Below, one piece after another: positions 9,249 to 63,684 of a DNA stretch of 64,000 nt. Numbering within the stretch: position 1 is the stretch's first letter; each line of letters starts with the position of its first letter. The notes under the pieces were generated by a model that saw only the letters and a list, made by a program, of their open reading frames with translations, made no database searches and had not been told where the DNA came from. The position numbers were made by a program, and so were the translations under genes. Source of the stretch: Alphaproteobacteria bacterium (GTDB lineage Bacteria; Pseudomonadota; Alphaproteobacteria; Rs-D84; SZUA-605); the NCBI GenBank assembly GCA_031549385.1, contig JAVBPW010000001.1, positions 67,348 to 131,347 of the forward strand, written 5' to 3'.

Positions 9249-9980
9249 TTATTCCCCTTGATTCTCAACTTGTACTTCAGCTGGTTTTGATTTTGTTGTT
9301 TCAATTACACCTGCTGGAAAAGGCACACCTGCTGGTAATTCTTTTTTAACAGCGTCTTTGATTAATACAAATGCTCCTTTATGACCAGGAACAGCACCTT
9401 TTACAATTAATAAACCATTTTCTAAATCTGCTTCAATTACTTCTAAGTTTTGAATAGTTACTCTTTCAACACCTAAGTGACCAGCCATTTTCTTATTTTT
9501 AAATGTCTTTCCACCACCTTGTCTTGTACCAGTTGATCCATGAGAACGATGAGCTTTTTTCACACCGTGTGATGCTTCAAGTCCTGCAAAGTTCCATCTT
9601 TTCATAGGACCTGCAAAACCTTTACCAATTGTTACACCTATTACATCTACAAATTGTCCTTTAATAAAATGTGCCGGAGACAATTGTGTTCCGACAGCTA
9701 GCATACAATCTGGAGATACTCTGAATTCAACCACTTTTTGTGCTGGTTTTAAATCATTCTTTTTATATAGACCTGCCTCAGGTTTATTTACTCTTGATTC
9801 TTTCTTTTCACCAAAACCTAAACATACAGCTTGATAACCATCTTTATCCATGTCTTTTACATTAACAACACGATTGCTATCAATTTGTATTACAGTAACA
9901 GGTACTTGATGGTCGGAACCTTCAAATACTCTTGTCATGCCTACTTTTTTTCCAATTAATCCTGAACGCATATTATCCAT
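9249..9980 (-). CDS. rplC: 50S ribosomal protein L3
   Basis: GLIGKKVGMTRVF N-terminus. Confidence 0.9.
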   Translation of the reverse strand: MDNMRSGLIGKKVGMTRVFEGSDHQVPVTVIQIDSNRVVNVKDMDKDGYQAVCLGFGEKKESRVNKPEAGLYKKNDLKPAQKVVEFRVSPDCMLAVGTQLSPAHFIKGQFVDVIGVTIGKGFAGPMKRWNFAGLEASHGVKKAHRSHGSTGTRQGGGKTFKNKKMAGHLGVERVTIQNLEVIEADLENGLLIVKGAVPGHKGAFVLIKDAVKKELPAGVPFPAGVIETTKSKPAEVQVENQGE

Positions 9981-14666: not shown

Positions 14667-17084
14667 TTAAACTTCTTTTGCAACGATATCTATTTTAAGA
14701 TTTTGGTTTTCAACAGGTTCTGACGCAGATCCAAATATTACTTCATCTGTTCTTGCTCCTGATATTATTACACCATGTAAATCTTTATCTAAATCACCTT
14801 CAATTGTTACTGATGATAATTTTGCTGTTGCACCTAATTTTTTATCTGTTCTTAACTTTCTTACAGTTTTTAATATATCTAATGCAACTTGCATTTTTGA
14901 TATATCCGTTTCTCTTTCTTGTTTGAACTCTGGGTAATTTGTTAAGTGAAGAGTTTGCTGTTTTTCCAAATCTTTATAAATCTTTGAATACAACTCTTCT
15001 GTTATAAATGGAATAAATATTGAGTATAGACCTATTATTTCACGCAACAATTCAAACAATGTTATTTGAGCTGAAAGCTTAGCATTTTCACCATATTTAG
15101 CCTCATTCCAGAATCGGTCTTTGATGTATTCCAAATATTGGTCACAGAATATATCATAGAAGAAATGATCTATATCTTCTCTTGCATTAAATGTGTCATA
15201 TTTATCCATGTTCTTACGAACTGACACAATTGTTTTATTTAATTCTGATAGAACCCAGCGGTCTTCTAAGAATCGGTCTTTGATTTCTATATTTTTATGA
15301 TTTTTTTGATCAAAATCTTCTAAATTCATAAGAACAAATTTTGATGCATTCCAAAGTTTATTTGTTAACTTTGTTCCTCTTTTTACTTCTTCTTCATTGT
15401 ATCTTAAATCTGTTCCAATTGGAGCGCACGATACCCAATAACGAAGAGCATCTACTCCAAATTTTTTTATAACATCAAGAGGATCAACACCGTTCCCTTT
15501 TGATTTAGAAAATTTTTGCCCTTTATTATCACGAACAAGCCCATGTAAATAAAGTGTTTTAAACGGAATTTCATTCATTGCATATAAAGACATCATTATC
15601 ATACGAGCACCCCAAAAAAATATAATATCTGGTCCCATAGACATATAGTCAGTTGGATAGTACTTTTTTAATTCTGGTGTTTGCTCTGGCCAACCAAGAG
15701 TTGAAAAACACCACAAACCTGAAGAAAACCAGGTATCTAATGTATCATTATCCTGTACTATTTTTTTATTTTTAGCAAGCTTAGTAGCCTCTTTTTCATT
15801 TATTGCACAATATTGATTTCCATCCTCATCATACCAAACAGGAATTTGATGCCCCCACCATAATTGACGTGATATAGTCCATGGGCGAATCTCTTTCATC
15901 CACGACATATATAAATTGTAACGATGTTCAGGTATGAATTTTATTTTACCTTGTTCTACTACTTCTATTGCTTTTTTAGCTAATAATTTTGCATTAACAT
16001 ACCATTGGGTTGTTAAATAAGGTTCAATTACACACCCTCCTCTTTCTGAATATGGAATTGGAATTGTTTTATCTTCTACTTTTACTAATTGACCTAATTC
16101 TTCTAAATCAATAATAACTTGTTTACGAGCATCAAACCTGTCCATACCTTGATATTTTTCAGGCACATTTTCATTTAATTTAGCATCTTTTGTTAAGATA
16201 TTTAACAATTCTAATTTATGTTTTTTTCCAACTTCATAATCATCAAAATCATGAGCAGGAGTAATCTTTACAGCACCTGTTCCTTTTTCTGGATCAGCAT
16301 GTTCGTCTGCTATGATTGGGATATAAATTTCTGTTAGCGGTATTTTTGCTGTTTTTCCAATTAAGTGTTTTAGTTTTGCATTTTCTGGATGAATAGCTAT
16401 TGCTTGGTCACCAAATAATGTTTCTGGACGGGTAGTTGCCACTTCAACAAATCCACCATCTTTTATTTCATAGTTAATATAATAAAACTTACCCTTTTCT
16501 TCTTGAGTTATAACTTCAAGATCTGAAACAGCTGTTTTTTGTTTTGGACACCAATTTACAAGACAAGTATCTTTATAAATTAAACCATCATTGTACATAC
16601 GAACAAAAATTTCATTTACTGACTTTGATAACCCTTCATCCATTGTAAATCTTTCTCTAGACCAATTAGGAGTTATTCCGAAAACATGTAATTGATTTAT
16701 TATCTTACCTCCATACTCTTCTTTCCATTTCCAAGCATAGTTTAATAACTCTTCTTTTGATAAGTTTGAAGGATTTATATCATTTTTAGATAAATCTTTT
16801 TCTACTAAAATCTGAGTTAATATAGCTGCATGATCAGTTCCTGGTTGCCATAATACGTCATAATTTGACATTCGCTTATAACGAGCAACTATATCTGTTG
16901 ATATATTATCAAGCGCATGTCCTAGATGTAAAATACCAGATACATTTGGAGGTGGCATCATTATTGAAAAAGAAACTTTAGATGAATTAACATCATTTTC
17001 CCAAAATTTATTACTATCCCAAAAATTTTGCCATTTTGTTTCTAATTCATGTTTTTCTATATTTTTACTAAGTTCAATTTTCAT
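14667..17084 (-). CDS. valS: Valine--tRNA ligase
   Basis: 805 aa with HLGH-type (LHLGHAL) and KMSKS (KFSKSKGN) class I motifs. Confidence 0.9.
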   Translation of the reverse strand: MKIELSKNIEKHELETKWQNFWDSNKFWENDVNSSKVSFSIMMPPPNVSGILHLGHALDNISTDIVARYKRMSNYDVLWQPGTDHAAILTQILVEKDLSKNDINPSNLSKEELLNYAWKWKEEYGGKIINQLHVFGITPNWSRERFTMDEGLSKSVNEIFVRMYNDGLIYKDTCLVNWCPKQKTAVSDLEVITQEEKGKFYYINYEIKDGGFVEVATTRPETLFGDQAIAIHPENAKLKHLIGKTAKIPLTEIYIPIIADEHADPEKGTGAVKITPAHDFDDYEVGKKHKLELLNILTKDAKLNENVPEKYQGMDRFDARKQVIIDLEELGQLVKVEDKTIPIPYSERGGCVIEPYLTTQWYVNAKLLAKKAIEVVEQGKIKFIPEHRYNLYMSWMKEIRPWTISRQLWWGHQIPVWYDEDGNQYCAINEKEATKLAKNKKIVQDNDTLDTWFSSGLWCFSTLGWPEQTPELKKYYPTDYMSMGPDIIFFWGARMIMMSLYAMNEIPFKTLYLHGLVRDNKGQKFSKSKGNGVDPLDVIKKFGVDALRYWVSCAPIGTDLRYNEEEVKRGTKLTNKLWNASKFVLMNLEDFDQKNHKNIEIKDRFLEDRWVLSELNKTIVSVRKNMDKYDTFNAREDIDHFFYDIFCDQYLEYIKDRFWNEAKYGENAKLSAQITLFELLREIIGLYSIFIPFITEELYSKIYKDLEKQQTLHLTNYPEFKQERETDISKMQVALDILKTVRKLRTDKKLGATAKLSSVTIEGDLDKDLHGVIISGARTDEVIFGSASEPVENQNLKIDIVAKEV

Positions 17085-20464: not shown

Positions 20465-20938
20465 ATGCAGAGAGAACCTATTACAGTTACAGGTAAACAA
20501 ATATTAGAACAAGAATTAAAATATTTAAAAGAAATTCAAAGACCAATCATTATCAATGAACTTGCTAATAACATAGAACTTGGTAATTTGCCTGAAAATG
20601 GTGGTTATGAAGCTGCTAAAGAAGAGCAAGGATTAACTGAAGCTAGAATTGCCGAAATTGAAAGTGCTCTTGCATCATCTTATGTTATAAACCCTTCTGA
20701 ATTTAAAGGCGATGGGAATATAAAATTTGGTGCAAGAGTTATGTTAGAAGATAATGATGGAGTTTTAAAAATTTACACAATTGTTGGTATTCCAGAAATA
20801 GATGTTCGTAAAGGACGCATTCCTTTCAATTCACCCATTGCTCGTGAATTAATTGGAAAAAAAGTTGGTGATCAAGTGATTGTTGTTACTCCAAGTGGCG
20901 AGAAAATTTTCGAAATTAAAAGAGTTGAATACACTTAG
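20465..20938 (+). CDS. GreA/GreB-family transcript cleavage factor paralog with divergent coiled-coil tip (GNLPENGGY)
   Basis: 157 aa aligning end-to-end with GreA. The position equivalent to catalytic Asp41 is Asn. Confidence 0.75.
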   Translation: MQREPITVTGKQILEQELKYLKEIQRPIIINELANNIELGNLPENGGYEAAKEEQGLTEARIAEIESALASSYVINPSEFKGDGNIKFGARVMLEDNDGVLKIYTIVGIPEIDVRKGRIPFNSPIARELIGKKVGDQVIVVTPSGEKIFEIKRVEYT

Positions 20939-21077
20939 AATCAAGCACAAATTTCTTTGTGCTTGATTTTGATAAATATTTCATTATATATGAGTTATGA
21001 AAATAAATTAATTTAACATAATGAAAATTAACCATCCATTATTGGAATGGTGTTTTTTTTTAAATGAGGTAAAAATT

Positions 21078-21551
21078 ATGGAACGTAAACCAATTACTCC
21101 TAGAGGTAAGGATTTATTAGAAGTAGAGTTAAAAGACTTGAAAGAAGTTAAGAGACCTGCTGTTATTAATGAAGTTGCATCTGCACGTGAAAAAGGCGAT
21201 TTGAAAGAAAATGCTGAATATCATGCTGCACGTGAAGCACAAGGATTAACTGAAGCTAGAATTACTGAAATCGAATCAATTCTTGCTACTTCTGATGTTA
21301 TAAATTCAAAAGATTTTAAAGGTGATACTCAAGTTAAATTTGGTGCAAAAGTTTCATTGGAAGATGAAGATGGATTAAAAAAAGAATATACTATTGTTGG
21401 TATTCCTGAAAGTGATGTTTCTAAAGGATTTATTCCTTTTAATTCACCTGTTGCAAGAGCGTTAATTGGAAAGAATATTGGTGAAGAAGTTGAAGTAAGA
21501 ACACCAGGTGGGGAAAAAATTTTTGTAATCAATGGAGTTGAATACGTTTAA
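21078..21551 (+). CDS. greA: Transcription elongation factor GreA (canonical GDLKENAEYHAAREAQG tip)
   Basis: 157 aa from the ATG at 21078, preceded by gaggtaaaa. Canonical acidic tip residues. Confidence 0.8.
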   Translation: MERKPITPRGKDLLEVELKDLKEVKRPAVINEVASAREKGDLKENAEYHAAREAQGLTEARITEIESILATSDVINSKDFKGDTQVKFGAKVSLEDEDGLKKEYTIVGIPESDVSKGFIPFNSPVARALIGKNIGEEVEVRTPGGEKIFVINGVEYV

Positions 21552-56329: not shown

Positions 56330-57637
56330 ATGAGAAAAATTCTATTTGTTATTTGCGCTTTTTTTACATTTAATACTTTTGCAAAAATTGACGTTGATAT
56401 TGTTGGTGGGAAATTGGATCCTATTCCTATTGCTATACAACCTTTTGAAGCTGAAGCAAGTTTGGCTAAAATTGCTAATGACCTTTATACTGTTATCGGA
56501 AATGATTTAACTTACAGTGGTATGTTTAAGATTATTGATCCTGAAGCTTTTATCAATAGAACTGATAAAGTTGGTGCTCTTCCTACTTTTAATGATTGGA
56601 AGATTATTAATGCTAATATACTTGTACAAGCAAAGATTACTAAAAAAGATTTAACAAATATGAGAATTGAATTTTATATTTGGGACGTTGTTGAAGGAAA
56701 ACAAGTTCACGCTGAAGCTTTAGTGTCTTTAAATTCTAATTGGAGACGTATGGCTCATATTATGGCTGATACTATTTATAAAGCATTAACAGGAGATTCT
56801 GGATACTTTGATTCAAGAGTTGTTTATGTTTCTGAATATGGAGACAGAACTCATAGAATTAAAAGACTTGCTATTATGGATTGGGACGGTGAAAACCATA
56901 AATTCTTAACTGATGAAAAGACTTTAGTGCTTACACCTCGATTTGCGCCTAATATGCAAAAGATTGCTTTCTTGTCATACTTTAAAGAAGTTCCAAAAGT
57001 TTATACATTTGATCTTCAAACTGGAGCTCAAGATTCTTTAGGCGATTTTCCTGGTATGACTTTTGCACCTCGTTTCTCACCTGATGGAACTAAAATGCTT
57101 TTATCTCAAGAAATGAATGGAAATTCTGATATATATGAAGTTAATCTTGCTACTAAAGAAAAGAAACGATTAACTAATCACCCTGCTATTGATACTTCAC
57201 CATGTTATTCACCTGATGGAAAAAAGATTGTGTTTAACTCTGATAGAGATGGCCCGCCTTCTATCTATACTATGAATGCAGATGGAAGTGATGTTAAGCG
57301 TATTACATTTAATGCTGGGAAATATTTTACTCCTGTATGGAGCCCCCGTGGAGATTTAATAGCATTTACTAAAATACAAGGTGGACAATTCTATATCGGT
57401 GTTGTTTTCCCTGATGGAGATGCTGAGAGAACTTTAGTTAAAAGTAATGATGTTATTGAAGGACCTTCTTGGGCACCTAATGGAAGACGTATTTTATACT
57501 TCAAAGAAGAATTAATTAATAAAGGTAAAGAAGTTAGAACAAGAATTTATAGTATTGATCTTACTGGTTACCACCAATTTGAAGTGAAGACTCCAAAAGA
57601 TGCGAGTGATCCTGCGTGGTCTCCATTACTTAAATAG
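56330..57637 (+). CDS. tolB: Tol-Pal system periplasmic protein TolB
   Basis: 435 aa. Signal peptide, N-terminal TolB domain, beta-propeller repeats (SPDG..., PxWSP). Confidence 0.85.
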   Translation: MRKILFVICAFFTFNTFAKIDVDIVGGKLDPIPIAIQPFEAEASLAKIANDLYTVIGNDLTYSGMFKIIDPEAFINRTDKVGALPTFNDWKIINANILVQAKITKKDLTNMRIEFYIWDVVEGKQVHAEALVSLNSNWRRMAHIMADTIYKALTGDSGYFDSRVVYVSEYGDRTHRIKRLAIMDWDGENHKFLTDEKTLVLTPRFAPNMQKIAFLSYFKEVPKVYTFDLQTGAQDSLGDFPGMTFAPRFSPDGTKMLLSQEMNGNSDIYEVNLATKEKKRLTNHPAIDTSPCYSPDGKKIVFNSDRDGPPSIYTMNADGSDVKRITFNAGKYFTPVWSPRGDLIAFTKIQGGQFYIGVVFPDGDAERTLVKSNDVIEGPSWAPNGRRILYFKEELINKGKEVRTRIYSIDLTGYHQFEVKTPKDASDPAWSPLLK

Positions 57638-57685
57638 TATTTACTGTAACAGTAAATACTCCCAAACTAGTTTTGGGATTTTTTT
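57638..57685 (+). terminator. Two tandem hairpins after tolB (gtatttactgtaacagtaaatac; cccaaactagttttggg + T-run)
   Basis: Perfect 10-bp palindrome, then an 8-bp-stem hairpin with T7. Confidence 0.6.
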
Positions 57686-57747
57686 ATAACCTATTAAATT
57701 ATTAAAAACAGGGTTTTTAACAATTTAACAGGTTTAATAACAATAAT
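57686..57747 (+). repeat. 60-bp dispersed hairpin repeat, copy E
   Basis: ataacctattaaattattaaaaacagggtttttaacaatttaacaggtttaataacaataat. Confidence 0.6.
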
Positions 57748-57767: not shown

Positions 57768-57965
57768 TTATATTTTTGGATATTTTTCTTTTATTGATTT
57801 TTGTTTCTCAATAAATTTTTCAATTCCATTTTCTATTATAAATTCTAATTGCTCTGATGGAGAACCATATTCTTTTGATCTTTTTTCAAAATATGTTTCT
57901 TCTTGAGATAAAGGAGCTTTTGGCTCTTCAATTTTTTCTAATATTCCGTTTGTAAATTTATACAT
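57768..57965 (-). CDS. Small protein (65 aa) translationally coupled to tail-fibre-like gene (TAA-A-ATG)
   Basis: Start is 1 nt after the upstream stop, with an AGGAAT SD inside the upstream gene. Acidic/Lys-rich. Possible fibre chaperone. Confidence 0.4.
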   Translation of the reverse strand: MYKFTNGILEKIEEPKAPLSQEETYFEKRSKEYGSPSEQLEFIIENGIEKFIEKQKSIKEKYPKI

Positions 57966-57966
57966 T

Positions 57967-59157
57967 TTAATTCCTTTCGTCTATAAAGCCCATTATGTGT
58001 AGATAGTATCCTAAAGCACCACCTTGAAGTAGTTGCAATCTTATATAATAACCTCCATCTTGATTTACTGGATAACTATCTACTACTACAGTTACTCCAC
58101 TTAATGGATTTGTTTTTACTAATAATTTTGCAGGGTCAGTTGAATGATATCTCATTTCAATTAAAAAATTATATCCTTCTACAGATAGTATCGGACGAAT
58201 CAAGTTTCCAAAGCCAATATCAACAAATTCAAAATTTTTATTTACTATTTGATAATCTAGTTGAATTTTTGGAGTGAATACTCTTACTGCTCCTCCTGCT
58301 TGTTCAAATGTAGTTATTTGAAGAATATTACCTGTTGAATCTGTTTTTATTATTCCTACTCTTCTGAACTTTGTAAAACTTCCTGAATTTTTTATTAAGT
58401 TAACTGCATTTTTGTCTGTATCAAACCCTGCGTCTACTTCCATTGTTTTTGGATTTAGTAAAACAAATACATAATAAACTTGATTATTTAACATAACCAT
58501 GTTTGGTGCAAGACCACCTGAAGTTGTTCCTTTTTCAAAATTCAAATTTAACTTCTTACTTATTGGAGATTTTAATACTATATCACAAGTATCCTCATAA
58601 TCTCTTGCACGACCTTTAGAAATTACTATTTCTTTATTGATATTAGTTGTAAGATTTGAAACTAATAAACCTTCTATATATCTTGGAGGAAGACCTACAT
58701 ATTCCATTAGAGTTTCTTTATATATGTGAGGAGTTATTGCTTTATCTGTATTTTGACCATCAATTGCTTCTTGTTTTGTCGCAAGAGAGATTACCCCTCT
58801 TTTGTTTGAACTTGCATAGCTTTCTTGAGTGCAATTGCTTAAGTCATTTTTTAATAAACCTTTTGCAAGAAGAGTTGATGTGTCTACATTGCTTAAATCA
58901 GTTTTTACTATACCTTTGTCTGTAAATACTTCATCTGATACGTTTGATAAATTTGAATCTGTTAAACCTTTATTTAATAAAGTTTGAAGTTCTACATTTT
59001 CTAAATCTTCCCTTGCTAGAGGCATTCCACCTACTGTTTTGTTGTCATGAATCACTCCTGTTGATTTGTCTGTGTCTACTGTAATTTCTCCTGAAAGACC
59101 GGTAAACAACCCATGTTTGGCAGTTGAGCCACGACGAAATTGTACTGCTTTTGTCAT
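57967..59157 (-). CDS. Phage tail-fibre-like protein (396 aa)
   Basis: SD AAAGGAAT. N-terminus MTKAVQFRRGSTA...GEITVDTD...VIHDNKTVGG resembles the tail-fibre/Mtd N-domain. Repeated DLSNV units. SLATKQEAIDGQNTDKAITP matches the widespread tail-fibre ATxxEAxxGTDxxKAxTP motif. Confidence 0.5.
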   Translation of the reverse strand: MTKAVQFRRGSTAKHGLFTGLSGEITVDTDKSTGVIHDNKTVGGMPLAREDLENVELQTLLNKGLTDSNLSNVSDEVFTDKGIVKTDLSNVDTSTLLAKGLLKNDLSNCTQESYASSNKRGVISLATKQEAIDGQNTDKAITPHIYKETLMEYVGLPPRYIEGLLVSNLTTNINKEIVISKGRARDYEDTCDIVLKSPISKKLNLNFEKGTTSGGLAPNMVMLNNQVYYVFVLLNPKTMEVDAGFDTDKNAVNLIKNSGSFTKFRRVGIIKTDSTGNILQITTFEQAGGAVRVFTPKIQLDYQIVNKNFEFVDIGFGNLIRPILSVEGYNFLIEMRYHSTDPAKLLVKTNPLSGVTVVVDSYPVNQDGGYYIRLQLLQGGALGYYLHIMGFIDERN

Positions 59158-59185
59158 TTTATATTCCTTTATATTTAAAATAAAA

Positions 59186-59215
59186 AATACCAAAATAAAT
59201 TAATATTTTGGTATT
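59186..59215 (-). terminator. Perfect palindrome aataccaaaataaattaatattttggtatt flanked by A/T runs
   Basis: 12-bp stem with A6 upstream and A6 downstream on the plus strand, so a T-run on the minus strand. Sits between the membrane-protein array and the tail-fibre gene. Confidence 0.5.
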
Positions 59216-59281
59216 AAAAAATGGGCACTATTGTCCCATAAATCTTTGTTTATTATACAAAATATTTTTCAAAAAGTCAAG

Positions 59282-60637
59282 TTATTTCTTTTTATATATC
59301 TTTGCCATAATACTTTTTGCTTGAGCTTTTTGAGTATTTTCAACACTTGTAACTTGAGCATTTATGTAATTTTTTACGTTGTTTGTAAAGCTTGCTTCTT
59401 TTAGTAAACCTTCAGCTTCTTTTTTTAATATTGTAAACATATAAAAACCTAATTGTAAGCCAAATATCATCTTTAACCAGTTAATCCAATTTGCAGGATT
59501 GTGGAAACCTGCTATTAGACCCGCAATTACTGTTCCTTTTATTTCACCATTGTCATCATAAAATACACTGTCTGGATTCATTAAATCTTTTGCTTGAAGC
59601 ATATTGTCACCTGCCGACATACCTGTTGGAATATCAATTACCATTTCACCAAGAACGTATTGTAAGAAGATTCCTAAAATTCCAATAGCTACCGACCAAA
59701 ATAGAAAACCCAATACTCCATTCTTAAACATATTAACTATATTAGCTCGCCAACCACTTGCAAATTTTAAAAATCCACTTTCTTCATTTTCTAATGCATA
59801 TGAAAATATAGCTAGAGGGAATAACATTATAGACAAACATATCTGAAGTATTACAGATATCATCATCCATAACATTTCAAGCCCAAGACTAAACCCTTTG
59901 GTTATGAAAAAAAATCCTACAGAAAAAACTACATATGACATATATTCAAGTGCTTTACTTACAATTCTGCCAACATAAGGAATCATGTTTGCAAAAAATG
60001 AACCTATAAATTCTCCTGCTGATGTTACCGTCATCCAAGTTCCTAGCCTCATTAAAACATCAATTTGTTTTGCACTTATGTTTACTGGGCAAACTATTTT
60101 TGCTTTTGTTTCTGCAGAGATTGCCTCATCAGCTTCTGGATTTGCTTCTTTTGTGTAATTTTCTACACACTTTTCATAATTACTATCTACATTAACCATA
60201 AATCCTGTTGTATAGGTGGAGGCTAAATTTAATATTGGATCAACTGTTATTTCAAAAAGAAACTTTTGATTAGTGTTTAAAAGTATTAATGAAATAAGAA
60301 CAAAGAAGAGTCTTTTCCAAAAACTTTTTCTTAAAAATTTATAATCTTCTTGATTTAATATTACTCTTATTACTATTCCCGCTATGTAAAACAAAAAGAA
60401 TATGTAGATCAAATTTCTTACTAATTTAGCTAAAAGTTCTGCAGTTGAATATGCAAGTGGAGATAAAGCATCAAGAACAATCATGCCTAATGATGATATC
60501 CAATTAGGTATATTTCCTGTTACTTCAATAACATCTCTTGTTATTACTCTGGTACCAGTTTTAAGAACTTGAGCATAAAGAGCATCACAGCTTAAACATA
60601 ATAATACAATCATAAATAGGAATAAAATTTTCTTCAT
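59282..60637 (-). CDS. Polytopic membrane protein paralog 3 (451 aa), signal peptide; VirB6/TrbL-like architecture
   Basis: Signal peptide MKKILFLFMIVLLCLSCDALYA. Multiple TM helices. Shares LxxPLxI...E...W motif block with the two upstream genes. Confidence 0.45.
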   Translation of the reverse strand: MKKILFLFMIVLLCLSCDALYAQVLKTGTRVITRDVIEVTGNIPNWISSLGMIVLDALSPLAYSTAELLAKLVRNLIYIFFLFYIAGIVIRVILNQEDYKFLRKSFWKRLFFVLISLILLNTNQKFLFEITVDPILNLASTYTTGFMVNVDSNYEKCVENYTKEANPEADEAISAETKAKIVCPVNISAKQIDVLMRLGTWMTVTSAGEFIGSFFANMIPYVGRIVSKALEYMSYVVFSVGFFFITKGFSLGLEMLWMMISVILQICLSIMLFPLAIFSYALENEESGFLKFASGWRANIVNMFKNGVLGFLFWSVAIGILGIFLQYVLGEMVIDIPTGMSAGDNMLQAKDLMNPDSVFYDDNGEIKGTVIAGLIAGFHNPANWINWLKMIFGLQLGFYMFTILKKEAEGLLKEASFTNNVKNYINAQVTSVENTQKAQAKSIMAKIYKKK

Positions 60638-62055
60638 TATTTCAATTTACCTCCTATGAAATCCATTATAAAGTTTCCACCATTTTTTAATTTATCAAGA
60701 CCTTTATTGAATAAATCTATTCCTAGGTTGCTTAAATTATTAATCAATAAATCTTCTTTATTTAGTTTTACCTTTCCTTTTATAAAATTAAACATTTCAA
60801 ATGTTAGTTTTGATAATGCCATAATTATTAAAAGCATCATTAATCCCCAATTTGTGTCTGGAGTTGGTAATTTTTTGTAACAATCTAATGTTTGTTTGTT
60901 TAATTTAGACATATCTATATTAGTACTCCAAGTGTCACCTTTAAGACTTGAACTTTTTATTATTTCAACACATTTATCATATTCTTGCTTAGCTTTTGAT
61001 GCTTGCCTTGTATCAACTTTATTAAAATAGTCAGGGAAAAGATATGAATAATTATCTTGAGGGCCTGGAAAATATATGTCACCAACCTTCATATAAACTG
61101 CATATACAACAACAAATGCTATTGATAATGTTACCATATAGAGAGCAGCATTTATTACGGCATTAAGAGCAAAAGATTTCATCCAATCAACTGGTTTTTT
61201 AAGAGCTGTTTCAAATACCCATCCCACCAGAAGTAATGGTAAGATTATAACTGGAATTAATAATGATATTAAAATATCTAACATCATAAAGGCTATATAT
61301 AAAAGCAATGAGAAGAAAGCTAGGAATATCCAATAACCAGATAGAGTTGCTGTTATACTCATCATACTCATTCCCATAGACATTAGCTGTCCACCACCTT
61401 GCATTCCACCCATCATAATTAATGATGTTGATGATACATAACATAAGAAGTCTTTTTTCATTTCATTTGAAAATACAGAATCATCTGCCCCGCCACCTTC
61501 TGACTTATAGTTATCACACATACCTTCTGGAAGTTGTAGGATACTTTGAGAAACATAACTTCCCATTTTCATTACTGGACCTATATAACCTCTTGCTGCT
61601 AATTTTACAAAATTGATTGTTGAATTTGTAAATGCTCCTAATAATATTGTTATTAAAACAGCTCTCCATAATCTGCCTATTATTTTGCTTAGATATTGTT
61701 TTGGAGTTGTTTCATTTACTTTTAGAATTGTTTCAAATGTATAATATATTGTCCATAATACTAATCCTATTGCTAATAATTGCATTGATGATGAGATTAA
61801 AAAGTCAAGAGCATAGTCTGCGGCTACTCTAAATACATCAAATAATTTTGCTAATAAATCACAACCTATACATGACGATGAATTTATAACATCACATCCT
61901 GGTTGTGTTGGATCGCATCCTATTGTACTTGTTAGCCAATCAGTTACATTGCCACCACCAGCACCTTTGTTTGTTGGGGATGCAAAAAATATTACAAGAA
62001 ACGGTAGTACCGAAAATGTAAAATATTTAATAAGCATAAATATAATTTTTGCCAT
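60637..62055 (-). CDS. Polytopic membrane protein paralog 2 (472 aa), signal peptide; VirB6/TrbL-like architecture
   Basis: Signal peptide plus TM bundle. GGM/Q-rich loop. ISLLIPVIILPLLLVGWVFE...VDWMKSF block. Confidence 0.45.
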   Translation of the reverse strand: MAKIIFMLIKYFTFSVLPFLVIFFASPTNKGAGGGNVTDWLTSTIGCDPTQPGCDVINSSSCIGCDLLAKLFDVFRVAADYALDFLISSSMQLLAIGLVLWTIYYTFETILKVNETTPKQYLSKIIGRLWRAVLITILLGAFTNSTINFVKLAARGYIGPVMKMGSYVSQSILQLPEGMCDNYKSEGGGADDSVFSNEMKKDFLCYVSSTSLIMMGGMQGGGQLMSMGMSMMSITATLSGYWIFLAFFSLLLYIAFMMLDILISLLIPVIILPLLLVGWVFETALKKPVDWMKSFALNAVINAALYMVTLSIAFVVVYAVYMKVGDIYFPGPQDNYSYLFPDYFNKVDTRQASKAKQEYDKCVEIIKSSSLKGDTWSTNIDMSKLNKQTLDCYKKLPTPDTNWGLMMLLIIMALSKLTFEMFNFIKGKVKLNKEDLLINNLSNLGIDLFNKGLDKLKNGGNFIMDFIGGKLK

Positions 62056-62058
62056 CTC

Positions 62059-63684
62059 TTAAAACCATCCTTTTATTTTTCCAAAAACATTTTTAACACC
62101 ACCCCAAGCTTGCTTTCCATAAGCCCTTACACCACGAGCATATCTTGGGTCTAATCTTAAATTTGCAGCGTCTTTGAATTTAGTTTTTGTATCAAGAACA
62201 TCTTTTACGCCATCAATTGCATTGTCTTCAAATTTTTTACCATAACCGCTGTCAAAATCACTTATATCTTTATCAAAGTATTTTACAAATTCATTTGTAT
62301 ATTTTGGTATTTGTTTTATGAAATGACTTGATATAAAACCTATGATTATTAATTCAAATAATCCAGCTCCAAAATAGCCTAATTTTTCTGCTATTTCAGG
62401 TGTTATGTTTTCTGCATCTGGTAAAGATATAGCTTTTAACATAAGCATTATTAGCATAGTAAAGAATGCTGTAAAAATACTTATGAAACAAATTTGAACT
62501 AGACTTTTCCAAATATCTTTGAATGAAAAGAAATTTGTTTTGTAATCAATTACCCAGAAAGCTATTGATAATGGTAAGAAGAATAGACATTTACATATTT
62601 CTATTAACGGTGAAATAAGATACATAGAAATTGCAAAAAGATTTTTTAAGAATAAAAATATTAATATTAATCCTGGAATTATTTTGAATTTACCTAGTAA
62701 ACTGAAACCTAATAAAACAGGTTCCATTAAAACTTTGAAACTGCTTTGAACTAAACACATATAGTTTTGTTTGAATGAGTTTCCTAGCATTTCAAATTCA
62801 CCACCCATGTTAGAAAGATTATATGTACATGAGAAATCTTTACCCATTATTCCTTGGACTAAAATTGACGTTAGATCAAATATTGGCTTTGCAATAAATT
62901 CTATTATTTCTTTTGGAATAAAAAATGTAGTTGGAGCTGGGAGAAGGACTAAACCTGCTATTATTAATTTTACAGCTTGCTTTACATATTTTTTATTCAT
63001 ATCTTTTGGGCTCATAGTAGGTCCCGTGATTCCACCATATATACCTTTGAAAATATCCCAACCTAAAAATATTATTAGAAGGCATGCTGTCATATAAAAT
63101 ACAAAATCTTTTATGTTCACAAAAAACATGTACGTATATTGAGAAATAAAATTATAAAAAGTTTCATATATAGGACAAATGAAACAACCTGATTTGAAAG
63201 TTTTAATAGCCATAAAGAAACCTTCGTTATAACATCCTGGTCTCCAATCTATTGTCTTTATATCATAGCTTCCTATTTTTAGTTGAGATTTTGACTTAGT
63301 TTCTTTTGTTGGAGCCATAACGCCTAATGTTTGACCAAATGGGGATAAAAATTGACCTCTGGAAACTGATACTGGTCTGTATGCTGAAGATAATATATTA
63401 AACTCATCAAATCCATAATCAGAACAAATATCCCATGCAATTCTTCCTCTTTTTTCAAATTGCCCTTTGTCATTTAAAAATACATTTTGAGTTGATTTAT
63501 CCATTTTAATTCTTTCATCTATTATTTGACTTATAGTTGAAGAATCAATTAGCATTCTTCTTTGGCTTGCTATTTGATGAATTTCATTTGCTATACCTGG
63601 ATTTAAATCAAATGATATAAATATTGATGGATTTGTATCTTGTGGGAAAAGCTTTAAATAATCAGAATAACTTATTTTACCCAT
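62059..63684 (-). CDS. Polytopic membrane protein paralog 1 (541 aa from ATG; probably N-terminally extended to about 63858 with a signal peptide)
   Basis: Large periplasmic-like N-domain then TM bundle (CLFFLPLSIAFWVIDY...KDIWKSL). The in-frame upstream reads IKQLRIIFAVLTFVLFANNAHA, preceded by AGGAGG. Confidence 0.45.
   Translation of the reverse strand: MGKISYSDYLKLFPQDTNPSIFISFDLNPGIANEIHQIASQRRMLIDSSTISQIIDERIKMDKSTQNVFLNDKGQFEKRGRIAWDICSDYGFDEFNILSSAYRPVSVSRGQFLSPFGQTLGVMAPTKETKSKSQLKIGSYDIKTIDWRPGCYNEGFFMAIKTFKSGCFICPIYETFYNFISQYTYMFFVNIKDFVFYMTACLLIIFLGWDIFKGIYGGITGPTMSPKDMNKKYVKQAVKLIIAGLVLLPAPTTFFIPKEIIEFIAKPIFDLTSILVQGIMGKDFSCTYNLSNMGGEFEMLGNSFKQNYMCLVQSSFKVLMEPVLLGFSLLGKFKIIPGLILIFLFLKNLFAISMYLISPLIEICKCLFFLPLSIAFWVIDYKTNFFSFKDIWKSLVQICFISIFTAFFTMLIMLMLKAISLPDAENITPEIAEKLGYFGAGLFELIIIGFISSHFIKQIPKYTNEFVKYFDKDISDFDSGYGKKFEDNAIDGVKDVLDTKTKFKDAANLRLDPRYARGVRAYGKQAWGGVKNVFGKIKGWF

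Follow-up and report, generated by a model that had tools for sequence, protein, structure and literature searches.

The protein described here resembles, at its N terminus, Mtd of Bordetella phage BPP-1 and the fibres of several marine phages (cyanophage S-CAM3, pelagiphage HTVC008M and Roseobacter phage CRP-3), whose N-terminal ~55 residues are 55-65% identical to it from residue 1, and whose expected common role is to attach the receptor-binding protein to the virion. Further along, it shares a fibre motif and a middle beta-sandwich with FelixO1-like and other phage fibres (vB_PsaM_M1, PPpW-3 tail-collar and Rhizobium phage Palo); by contrast, N-terminal adaptors and distal tips differ, and those fibres are encoded in the baseplate modules of complete phages, with the M1 fibre gene sitting after the baseplate genes. 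RcGTA encodes its fibre apart from the other structural genes, at a separate tail-fibre locus (rcc00171). The scattered loci of GTAs are regulated together (PMC5026251), and Rickettsiales and Holosporaceae endosymbionts keep GTA heads, with tail or receptor-binding parts reported missing or unidentified (PMC9254644). GafZ, lambda Q and AlpA load at the promoter as antiterminators of GTA or phage-derived genes (PMC11150451). Control by lambda Q and by Pseudomonas aeruginosa AlpA involves a strong promoter with one or more intrinsic terminators within tens of nucleotides, upstream of phage-derived genes; the binding elements of Q, AlpA and GafZ lie in the promoter spacer, and CcGTA combines GafYZ activation with antitermination. 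Fibres of another kind, the MAT surface fibres of Bdellovibrio bacteriovorus (Bd2133), are ~1000 aa long and have signal peptides, a conserved N-terminal domain that anchors them to the predator's surface, and a beta-helical shaft (PMC10769870).

Within the window, by which we mean the whole 64-kb stretch of DNA analysed, the sequence features of one locus make up what reads as a self-contained cassette: promoter, leader terminators, fibre gene, small partner gene and terminator (Table 1). The conserved leader before the fibre gene, composed of a promoter, one or two intrinsic terminators and an RBS, is a new finding.

Table 1. Positions of the cassette's features in the window, listed from promoter to closing terminator.
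Feature	Position	Strand	Residues	Basis or description
Consensus sigma-70 promoter TTGACT-17 nt-TATAAT	59252..59280	-		11/12 consensus matches
Leader hairpin 1 (ATGGGAC-AATA-GTGCCCAT) + T5-6	59216..59239	-		intrinsic-terminator-like
Leader hairpin 2 (ATACCAAAATA...TATTTTGGTAT) + T6	59182..59214	-		double-hairpin layout recurs in relatives
Fibre gene, 396 aa	57967..59157	-		stop codon in range; Mtd_N-type phage receptor-binding fibre
Mtd_N domain	58993..59157	-	1-55	Pfam, PDB 1yu1 and BPP-1 Mtd matches
Four 18-aa repeats (xxxDLSNVxxxxxxxKGL)	58804..59019	-	~47-118	DLSNV motifs, DNA repeat D1
Phage fibre motif ASxxxxGVxxLATxxEAxxGxxxxKAITP	58711..58821	-	113-149	phrog_910, T4 gp12
Beta-sandwich 'middle' module	58273..58695	-	~155-295	AF2, cluster search, phage M1 fibre match
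Variable distal tip	57970..58272	-	~296-396	presumed receptor-binding end
Mini-ORF, 65 aa	57768..57965	-		phrog_9114/2687 family; C-terminal motif EKRxxxYGxxxEQL...KYPK
Two hairpins between mini-ORF and convergent tolB	57637..57690	.		terminator-like site 57660-57678, both strands

The fibre ORF starts with the ATG at 59157, and the protein opens MTKAVQFRRG...; a 408-aa version from a TTG at 59193, given by the ORF lister, is an artefact, because all homologues begin MT(T)KAVQ. At these first residues lies Mtd_N (PF18454; residues 5-38, E 1.3e-9, 38.3 bits against a cutoff of 26.3). The PDB entry for Mtd, 1yu1, matches residues 1-54 (E 3.6e-14), BPP-1 Mtd is 65% identical over 52 aa of the N terminus, and PHROG 9648 'tail protein' matches with E 5.6e-15. 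By these matches, residues 1-55 are classed with the N-terminal domain that serves Bordetella phage Mtd, and many fibres of marine phages, for virion attachment or trimerisation. DLSNV-type motifs follow at residues 51, 69, 87 and 105, in an exact 18-aa period that is also seen in the DNA as a 54-nt spacing (58834/58888, repeat D1); copy number differs among homologues, as repeat-number gaps in alignment A1. The phage fibre motif, present as AS..KRGV..LAT..EA..G.NTDKAITP, matches phrog_910 tail-collar fibre (PHROG, E 1.2e-5) and residues 50-81 of T4 gp12 (PDB 5iv5_O, E 0.005). The earlier note on this DNA had picked out an N-terminal block and a KAITP-type motif as marks of a fibre, with DLSNV repeats between them, and all three are confirmed, the repeats as four copies.

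In the AF2 model the middle module has a pLDDT of 80-92. It is common to thousands of phage fibre proteins: 2,922 cluster representatives were found at E<=1e-3, and these relatives carry varied N-termini (Mtd_N, T7 tail, tail-collar and gp12-mid domains). The fibre of Pseudomonas phage M1 (vB_PsaM_M1) is 30% identical over residues 115-279 (tblastn 5e-7), and a BFVD Foldseek search with the beta-sandwich C terminus gave phage tail fibres with E 1e-14 to 1e-13; homology to phage fibre or RBP domains is present at the C terminus as well. The distal tip (pLDDT 50-70) aligned over its full length solely with P0002. Foldseek matches in the PDB were the RBP of lactococcal phage p2 and carbohydrate-binding modules, and the C-terminal beta-sandwich domains are probably the receptor-binding end, binding glycans. 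Over its N-terminal third, the monomer model stays below pLDDT 50; by analogy with other phage fibres, the protein is probably a trimer. Similarity to tail fibres, suggested earlier as a check, was found by profile and by structure (Pfam, PDB, PHROG and BFVD Foldseek), and on its sequence we regard the 396-aa protein as a genuine phage-type receptor-binding fibre.

The ATG of the mini-ORF lies 1 nt past the fibre TAA, with AAGGA within the final fibre codons (GACGAAAGGAATTAAAATG), just as had been described. The product belongs to a phage family (phrog_9114/2687; PHROG E 1.7e-7), which our own HMM located after the fibre genes of L005/6, L011, L012 and L014 and, in phage P-SSP7, among tail-fibre genes (gp040). 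The closest relative (L068) lacks the mini-ORF, as do several others. Its placement and family support a translationally coupled small partner gene, apparently of phage origin, for which fibre chaperone would be a candidate role. Two hairpins in the gap that separates the mini-ORF from the convergent tolB are bidirectional terminator-like sites that close the cassette.

The promoter motif of the leader occurs once in the 64-kb window and has a T-rich, conserved spacer (CTTGACTTTTTGAAAAA). Since promoter-like hexamers are frequent by chance in 30%-GC DNA (9 found against 11 expected), the argument for this promoter rests on its conservation across genomes: it is kept upstream of homologues elsewhere, in one case in a genome of 52% GC. 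Leader hairpin 1, for which the chance expectation is 0.11 matches, lies ~12 nt past the -10 hexamer, and hairpin 2 is followed by the RBS AAGGA (59165-59169) and the ATG. A lone palindromic hairpin had been said to set the gene off; the hairpin is real, but there are two between the fibre gene and the upstream membrane-protein gene, each with a T-run. No Rfam family matched the leader.

The order promoter, intrinsic terminator(s), RBS and Mtd_N gene is found in the window and at L068, L009, L010, L012, L013, L016, L019-L023 and L276, a layout kept in about 13 relatives. The double hairpin recurs in L068, L009 and L012 and in the GH108 leaders of L004 and L276. In five of these Mtd_N loci the upstream gene is divergent, so that there the leader hairpins cannot be its terminator. 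An unbiased scan for promoter, terminator and ORF over 338 kb of these genomes yielded 13 hits in front of 12 distinct genes: nine hits (eight genes) were Mtd_N genes, two were GH108/MuF-like muramidase genes, one was a major capsid gene and one a dubious 102-aa ORF. Fibre, GH108/MuF and capsid (L014) genes of relatives have this leader layout in common; the window contains one copy of the leader, and no second was found in the part scanned or in the ~10 kb beyond it. In L014 the promoter ahead of the capsid gene is weaker and the hairpin differs in sequence, so that membership of the same regulon rests on layout and not on an identical motif. For metagenome and viral contigs, the leader pattern proved too near a generic strong promoter; after a hairpin filter, the matches listed comprised just unrelated siphophage intergenic sites.

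The surroundings of the cassette were scanned with Pfam and PHROG over 39 window ORFs at 13.7-56.3 kb and, from the ribosomal block that runs to 13.5 kb, two ribosomal-operon ORFs at 0.9-2.2 kb, with the best 25 families listed per scan. Among the families listed there was no phage structural family in the scanned part of the window (13.7-64 kb), which bears out, for that part, the statement that no other phage structural genes are visible. Inspection beyond 64000 had also been advised: for the genes in the following ~10 kb no phage or T4SS Pfam family is on record, and no prophage was recognised. Neither the scanned part of the window nor these ~10 kb yielded a GTA cluster or any gene for a capsid, portal, tail or terminase protein, and no tRNA lies in 40-64 kb. 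One PHROG 'terminase large subunit' match (8e-12) was rejected as a GTA terminase; its ORF is untraced, its source was absent from ten ORFs rescanned, and FtsK is the likely source.

In contrast to the genes for Mtd and the marine fibres, the fibre gene is chromosomal, in a low-GC alphaproteobacterium, and isolated, with no virion structural module in the parts scanned. In ten other genomes it stands in ten different housekeeping contexts with no adjoining virion module, and the unannotated neighbours in L276 and L277, searched with PHROG, gave no structural genes. Full-length relatives are confined to alphaproteobacterial MAGs, with none in IMG/VR. The GC3 of the fibre gene, 0.141, equals that of neighbouring housekeeping genes, and its identity between genomes, ~40%, compares with 37% for KefB, 43% for LspA and 53% for RF-1 in the same genomes. 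The order membrane gene, fibre gene, convergent tolB is kept in L068, where the fibre has 44% protein identity. Given this host-like GC3, housekeeping-like divergence and retained synteny, the fibre gene is a long-standing resident of the lineage, outside any nearby prophage. Its ORF is intact in at least 14 divergent genomes with small, low-GC chromosomes.

We tentatively favour, as a quite plausible reading, that the protein, long resident in the lineage, is the receptor-binding fibre of a GTA-like system derived from a phage, with dispersed genes that are switched on by antitermination. The leader shared with muramidase and capsid genes points to a scattered phage-derived gene set and not to a secretion-system adhesin. 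Mtd_N would be the part that docks such fibres onto the virion, and we infer that the fibre serves a phage-like particle whose remaining genes would be scattered elsewhere in the chromosome, be it in a GTA-like 'multilocus' arrangement or as a resident defective podophage. The near-consensus promoter may fire constitutively, with transcripts ending at one or two leader terminators; read-through would then occur only once an antiterminator that loads at the promoter, of the lambda Q, AlpA or GafZ type, is made, and this factor would turn on all loci with the same leader together, giving a co-regulation of dispersed loci like that of multilocus GTAs. As with the known factors, the conserved element lies in the promoter spacer; compared with lambda PR'-tR', the leader is much shorter and its function is a prediction. 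No candidate antiterminator gene was identified. For this organism the particle is hypothetical, because the genome read amounts to 64 kb plus ~10 kb. Orthology with the RcGTA fibre (Rcc00171) was rejected: no DUF2793 was found at E<=0.1, and hhalign of A1 against RDJL-phi1 gp85 gave 1.5% probability.

It is also conceivable, though unlikely, that the locus is a spare or alternative fibre cassette for a phage that infects the cell or resides in it. The late regulator of a related phage would activate the leader in trans, and the fibre would mount on that phage's virions via the universal Mtd_N adaptor, leading to a change of host range or to sabotage. Phages that otherwise differ widely have almost the same Mtd_N, so that a fibre could fit foreign virions, the leader resembles a phage late-control element, and some genomes carry at least two Mtd_N genes with different tips (L005/L006 in tandem; P0012 and P0014 in one MAG). 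Among the matches listed, however, no leader adjoined fibre genes in viral contigs, and the host-like composition and conserved synteny, though compatible with such use, argue for host-driven retention.

Distinctly unlikely, in our view, is an inert relic, in which fibre and mini-ORF are leftovers of a decayed prophage without present function. The pair is isolated, with no phage genes nearby and the mini-ORF already gone in the closest relative, as decay would have it; yet the fibre ORF has stayed intact across divergent small genomes and is as conserved as housekeeping membrane proteins, the promoter, the terminator leader and the RBS have been kept, and synteny has held at 44% identity.

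The earlier note suggested that a domesticated fibre may provide a secretion or injection apparatus with its adhesin or receptor-binding module. Such a role for the fibre alongside the neighbouring membrane proteins, with the Bdellovibrio MAT fibres as analogue, now appears highly unlikely. Upstream of the fibre gene lie five tandem membrane paralogues, not three as first counted. They have no Pfam, NCBIfam, PDB-sequence or plasmid match and a single homologue among 5.8 billion proteins, and their AF2 model is unusable (pLDDT 41). A VirB6 identity gained no positive evidence: five methods gave no match and the model is too poor for a fold search. The array has neither a TrbL/VirB6 profile nor adjacent VirB3/VirB4, and the genes past 64000 have no T4SS family on record, VirB3 and VirB4 included; the genes upstream (903, 326, 165, 135 and 70 aa) gave RHH_4 as sole match. 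Adjacency of array and fibre is kept solely in L068, with unrelated housekeeping neighbours elsewhere. The fibre itself has no signal peptide and, unlike MAT fibres, neither their N-terminal anchor nor a ~1000-aa beta-helical shaft; it begins with the virion-docking Mtd_N at residue 1.

That the gene is the target of a diversity-generating retroelement (DGR), as Mtd is, can be dismissed as next to impossible, since beyond the Mtd_N domain common to both the proteins differ, the fibre here having no mtd_2nd or C-type-lectin variable domain, while the window contains no second (template) copy of any part of the fibre gene and no reverse-transcriptase family appears in the Pfam lists of window ORFs or among the families recorded for the neighbouring genes in relatives.

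On the favoured reading of a dispersed GTA-like system, a fibre cassette that is conserved, long resident and marked by a recognisable leader provides a handle on the missing GTA tail and receptor-binding parts. The leader motif can be used to find the rest of the dispersed phage-derived gene set in uncultured genomes, and it makes antitermination control a testable prediction. Should particles carry the fibre, its tip domain hints at their binding target; otherwise a small genome has kept a phage fibre for another purpose, which is rare. A bolder proposal, which we think unlikely, is that low-GC alphaproteobacteria, Rickettsiales-like and gut forms, carry a previously undescribed domesticated podovirus-derived particle system that resembles GTAs without being related to RcGTA. 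Single cassettes among housekeeping genes would encode Mtd_N fibres whose tips can be exchanged, an ejected muramidase of MuF-GH108 type and a pelagiphage-type capsid module, co-switched by a dedicated antiterminator through the shared promoter-proximal terminator leader.

L014 is not a contiguous prophage: its 468-aa 'portal-sized' ORF is AccC, its 404-aa ORF is without phage match, and no portal or terminase was seen in the region read. Between the head island and the fibre cassette lie accC, a probable accB, the 404-aa gene (function not assigned) and TraT. The L014 head genes, the only ones seen in a relative, are podovirus-like and not HK97/RcGTA-like: the capsid protein matches PDB 9eg4 (E 1e-25), is 47% identical to the podovirus-type capsid of Pelagibacter phage EXVC031P, and is accompanied by syntenic scaffold-like, 84-aa and 186-aa genes.

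The gene at 57967-59157 encodes a phage-type fibre protein, as the earlier note had proposed from two fibre motifs and intervening DLSNV repeats; matches in Pfam, PDB and PHROG confirm this. Residues 5-38 match Mtd_N (Pfam, E 1.3e-9, above the gathering threshold), the sequence of the Bordetella phage Mtd crystal structure aligns with residues 1-54 (E 3.6e-14), and these same residues share 55-65% identity with the N-termini of tail proteins from BPP-1, cyanophages, pelagiphage HTVC008M and Roseobacter phage CRP-3. Four DLSNV-type motifs follow at an exact 18-residue spacing (51, 69, 87, 105), a repeat that also shows in the DNA, as a 54-nt repeat, and varies in copy number among homologues. 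Residues 113-149 form a phage fibre motif common to T4 gp12 (E 0.005) and tail-collar fibres (phrog_910, 1.2e-5). An AlphaFold2 model (14 homologues) is confident only at residues ~160-300 (pLDDT 80-92) and moderate at 300-396; in BFVD the suggested Foldseek comparison matched it to predicted phage tail fibres, from an uncultured member of the Caudovirales at 1e-14, from Rhizobium phage Palo at 6e-14 and, as a tail-collar fibre, from Pseudomonas phage PPpW-3 at 1e-13. Over residues 115-279 the protein shares 30% identity with the product of a Pseudomonas phage vB_PsaM_M1 gene located just after the baseplate genes. With residues 150-396 as query, exhaustive HMMER searching matched 2,922 cluster representatives, nearly all over residues ~155-295 only; those with Pfam matches bear phage-fibre N-termini (for example Mtd_N, T7 tail fibre, tail-collar, gp12-mid), and the last ~100 residues aligned full-length with the closest relative only. 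This layout of conserved adaptor, modular shaft and variable tip is usual for a receptor-binding protein, and the protein is a new member of an already known kind. A 408-aa version from a TTG start, given by the ORF lister, was rejected; no homologue uses that start.

What is new is an orphan fibre cassette with a conserved promoter-terminator leader common to other phage-derived genes, a combination that deserves follow-up. On the minus strand, the leader comes directly after the stop codon that ends the last membrane gene. The same order of promoter, one or two intrinsic-terminator-like hairpins and ribosome-binding site precedes fibre homologues in L068 (the closest relative), L009, L010, L012 and L013 (L-numbers denote contigs or loci from other genomes or assemblies), and also short (~200-aa) Mtd_N genes in L016, L019-L023 and L276; L022 comes from a genome of 52% GC. 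The leaders have the -35 region and the T-rich spacer (CTTGAYTTTTT) in common; the hairpin stems vary by subfamily with pairing retained (GGGAC/GTCCC, GCCGCC/GGCGGC, CACCGCG/CGCGGTG). The hairpins are not the terminator of the upstream gene in L004, L016, L019, L020 and L023, where that gene runs divergently. No Rfam family matches the leader, and the motif occurs once in the window, with no second copy. The short Mtd_N proteins form a separate family (~190-215 aa; for example L016 3051-3623); they end in NWKIKFR(I/A)W(Y/F) and are encoded by single genes behind the leader on MAG contigs of 34-52% GC. In L014 the fibre promoter is directly preceded by a gene (9356-9853, plus strand) for a 165-aa protein whose only domain is an OmpR-type Trans_reg_C DNA-binding domain, possibly a regulator acting locally; the window showed no counterpart.

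Features of the fibre cassette, its surroundings and related loci
Feature	Position	Strand	Details
Tandem membrane-protein paralogues	59282-63684	-	upstream of fibre gene, same strand
Leader promoter	59280-59252	-	TTGACT, 17 nt, TATAAT; 11/12 consensus positions
Leader hairpin 1	~12 nt past promoter	-	ATGGGAC-AATA-GTGCCCAT and T-run
Leader hairpin 2	after hairpin 1	-	T-run; then AAGGA, then fibre ATG
Fibre ORF	57967-59157	-	396 aa; ATG at 59157; N-terminus MTKAVQFRRG
Mini-ORF	57768-57965	-	65 aa; start 1 nt past fibre TAA
tolB	downstream of fibre/mini-ORF		convergent
GH108 gene	L004 1086-1955	-
GH108 gene	L276 10001-10858
GH108 gene	L277 10001-10858
L014 head island	L014 596-4817	-	podovirus-type; 241-aa scaffold-like, 276-aa capsid, 84-aa and 186-aa genes
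L002 fibre neighbours			recA, ferredoxin
L003 fibre neighbours			rpiB, kefB, lspA
L004 fibre neighbours			acetate kinase, gidA
L005/L006 fibre neighbour			fabH
L010 fibre neighbours			RF-1, proS
L012 fibre neighbours			mannose-nucleotide genes
L014 fibre neighbours			TraT, lolCDE

An unbiased scan of 338 kb of relatives' genomes looked for any sigma-70-like promoter followed after 5-40 nt by a terminator-like hairpin, plus an ORF (100 aa or longer) no more than 250 nt away. It gave 13 hits, representing 12 distinct genes (that of L068 was counted at both hairpins). Mtd_N genes account for nine of the hits (eight genes) and GH108 genes for two; the other two are a dubious 102-aa ORF and a 276-aa ORF in L014, a 28%-GC alphaproteobacterial contig. 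The L014 ORF encodes a phage major capsid protein, which matches PDB 9eg4 (E 1e-25) and is 47% identical to that of Pelagibacter phage EXVC031P; around it, in the same order as in EXVC031P, lie homologues of that phage's scaffold-like, 84-aa and 186-aa genes. Two ORFs interrupt this head island, one of 154 aa (Lys/Ala-rich, histone-H1-like) and one of 186 aa (membrane). The island lies ~8 kb from the fibre cassette, with accC, a probable accB, a 404-aa gene and TraT between; no portal or terminase was seen adjoining it, its bounds being accC/accB. GenBank MT838921.1 and MT835740.1, unverified 'Bacteriophage sp.' records from human faeces, carry accC and accB-like genes 54-56% identical to those of L014 and may be bacterial fragments within a phage collection. 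The leader layout also stands ahead of the GH108 muramidase genes (285-289 aa, weak Phage_Mu_F signal) in L004, L276 and L277, the L004 hairpin being of the same ATGGG...GCCC type. The GH108 proteins form a conserved family with ~50% identity, represented by 51 proteins at E<=1e-5 (most in the window organism's class), in which GH108 lysozyme and PG_binding_3 occur alongside the weak Phage_Mu_F signal. In L276 and L277 the gene is followed by an ORF of 163-191 aa; in L004 and L276 no more than ~6 kb separates it from an Mtd_N gene and from acetate kinase, with LrgA/LrgB between in L276.

The 65-aa ORF was also as first described, starting 1 nt after the fibre stop, with its Shine-Dalgarno sequence (AAGGA) within the final fibre codons. 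It matches phrog_9114 (1.7e-7) and phrog_2687. A small HMM of the family, built here for searching relatives and viral contigs, found members directly 3' of the fibre gene in L005/L006, L011, L012 and L014, on three viral contigs, and as Prochlorococcus phage P-SSP7 gp040, amid annotated tail-fibre genes. No mini-ORF lies downstream of the fibre gene in L068, and in L002, L003, L004 and L010 it is missing or replaced by an unrelated ORF. This distribution points to a phage-derived partner, kept often and not always; a role as putative chaperone is plausible.

Promoter-loaded processive antiterminators, such as lambda Q, P. aeruginosa AlpA and GafZ, use a near-consensus promoter with immediate intrinsic terminators, and GafZ belongs to the Caulobacter gene transfer agent (PMC11150451). 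The fibre leader has the same arrangement, a promoter directly followed by intrinsic terminators. Dispersed, co-regulated structural loci, a separate tail-fibre locus included, are a hallmark of RcGTA (PMC5026251), and Rickettsiales and Holosporaceae endosymbionts retain GTA head genes, their tail components reportedly being absent or unidentified (PMC9254644). On the strength of the leader arrangement and these precedents we tentatively favour a reading in which the cassette would encode the receptor-binding fibre for a particle system that is phage-derived and dispersed, and would stay silent until an antiterminator is made. The RcGTA fibre, however, has no homology to the window protein, the sole head genes seen in a relative (L014) are podovirus-like, and the ~74 kb read of the window genome showed neither head nor tail genes, nor a second leader or a regulator. 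When 39 other ORFs of the window, mainly in 13.7-56.3 kb and with little of the ribosomal block (2.2-13.5 kb) covered, were scanned with Pfam and PHROG, the best 25 families per scan were only housekeeping ones (DnaK, FtsK, MutL, PBP, MraW, RF-1, RuvC, GatA, LspA, KefB, GcrA and others), and no tRNA lies in the 24 kb from 40 to 64 kb. It seems unlikely that the gene is instead a spare fibre which a related phage trans-activates and uses.

Full-length fibre relatives (35-44% identity) are restricted to MAGs labelled Rickettsiales, Rickettsiaceae or Alphaproteobacteria, plus L011 (32% GC), from a 'Bacteroidales' bin and probably mis-binned. IMG/VR yielded N-terminal matches to the fibre only. 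The fibre gene lies amid housekeeping genes in every relative examined, and the order membrane paralogue, fibre, convergent tolB is retained in L068 only. GC3 is 0.141 for the fibre gene versus 0.134-0.166 for its neighbours, and its between-genome identity is about that of KefB, LspA and RF-1 in the same genomes; such host-like composition and housekeeping-level identity indicate long residence under constraint. An inert relic is quite unlikely, given that the ORF, leader and synteny are conserved. 'Bacteroidales'/'Muribaculaceae' MAG contigs (L016, L011) carry these genes, and L016 1-950 is a fragment with 75% identity to the 805-aa protein encoded at window 14667-17084; both contigs probably belong to gut-metagenome relatives of the window organism and were put in the wrong bin.

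The favoured particle-system reading departs from the earlier note, which suggested that the fibre may be an adhesin or receptor-binding module of a secretion or injection apparatus and counted three membrane proteins upstream. A Logan contig extending the window (L066 6607-14403) shows five tandem paralogues (459, 614, 541, 472 and 451 aa), multi-pass and highly diverged (19-24% identity to each other). They have no match in Pfam, NCBIfam, PDB sequences or plasmids, and a single homologue among 5.8 billion proteins (P0122, Rickettsiales MAG LBR35); their predicted structure is unusable (pLDDT 41). Beyond 64000, two of these paralogues are followed by divergent genes of 903, 326, 165, 135 and 70 aa, among which only RHH_4 matched, and then AsmA; no T4SS gene family is on record there or for the genes adjoining the array. 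The fibre gene has its own promoter, and terminator-like hairpins part it from the array. There is thus no positive evidence for a functional link, and a secretion-linked adhesin is very improbable. A DGR target, a reading of negligible probability, is excluded for the window.

The independent Logan assembly of the same sample (end of contig SRR23967709_55786, L001 position 11457) breaks at ~57700, 67 nt past the mini-ORF stop, in a hairpin-rich intergenic region before tolB through which the NCBI contig runs. The window also holds two genes for GreA/GreB-family transcription elongation factors, probably 20465-20938 and 21021-21551, and a gene for the GcrA cell-cycle regulator.
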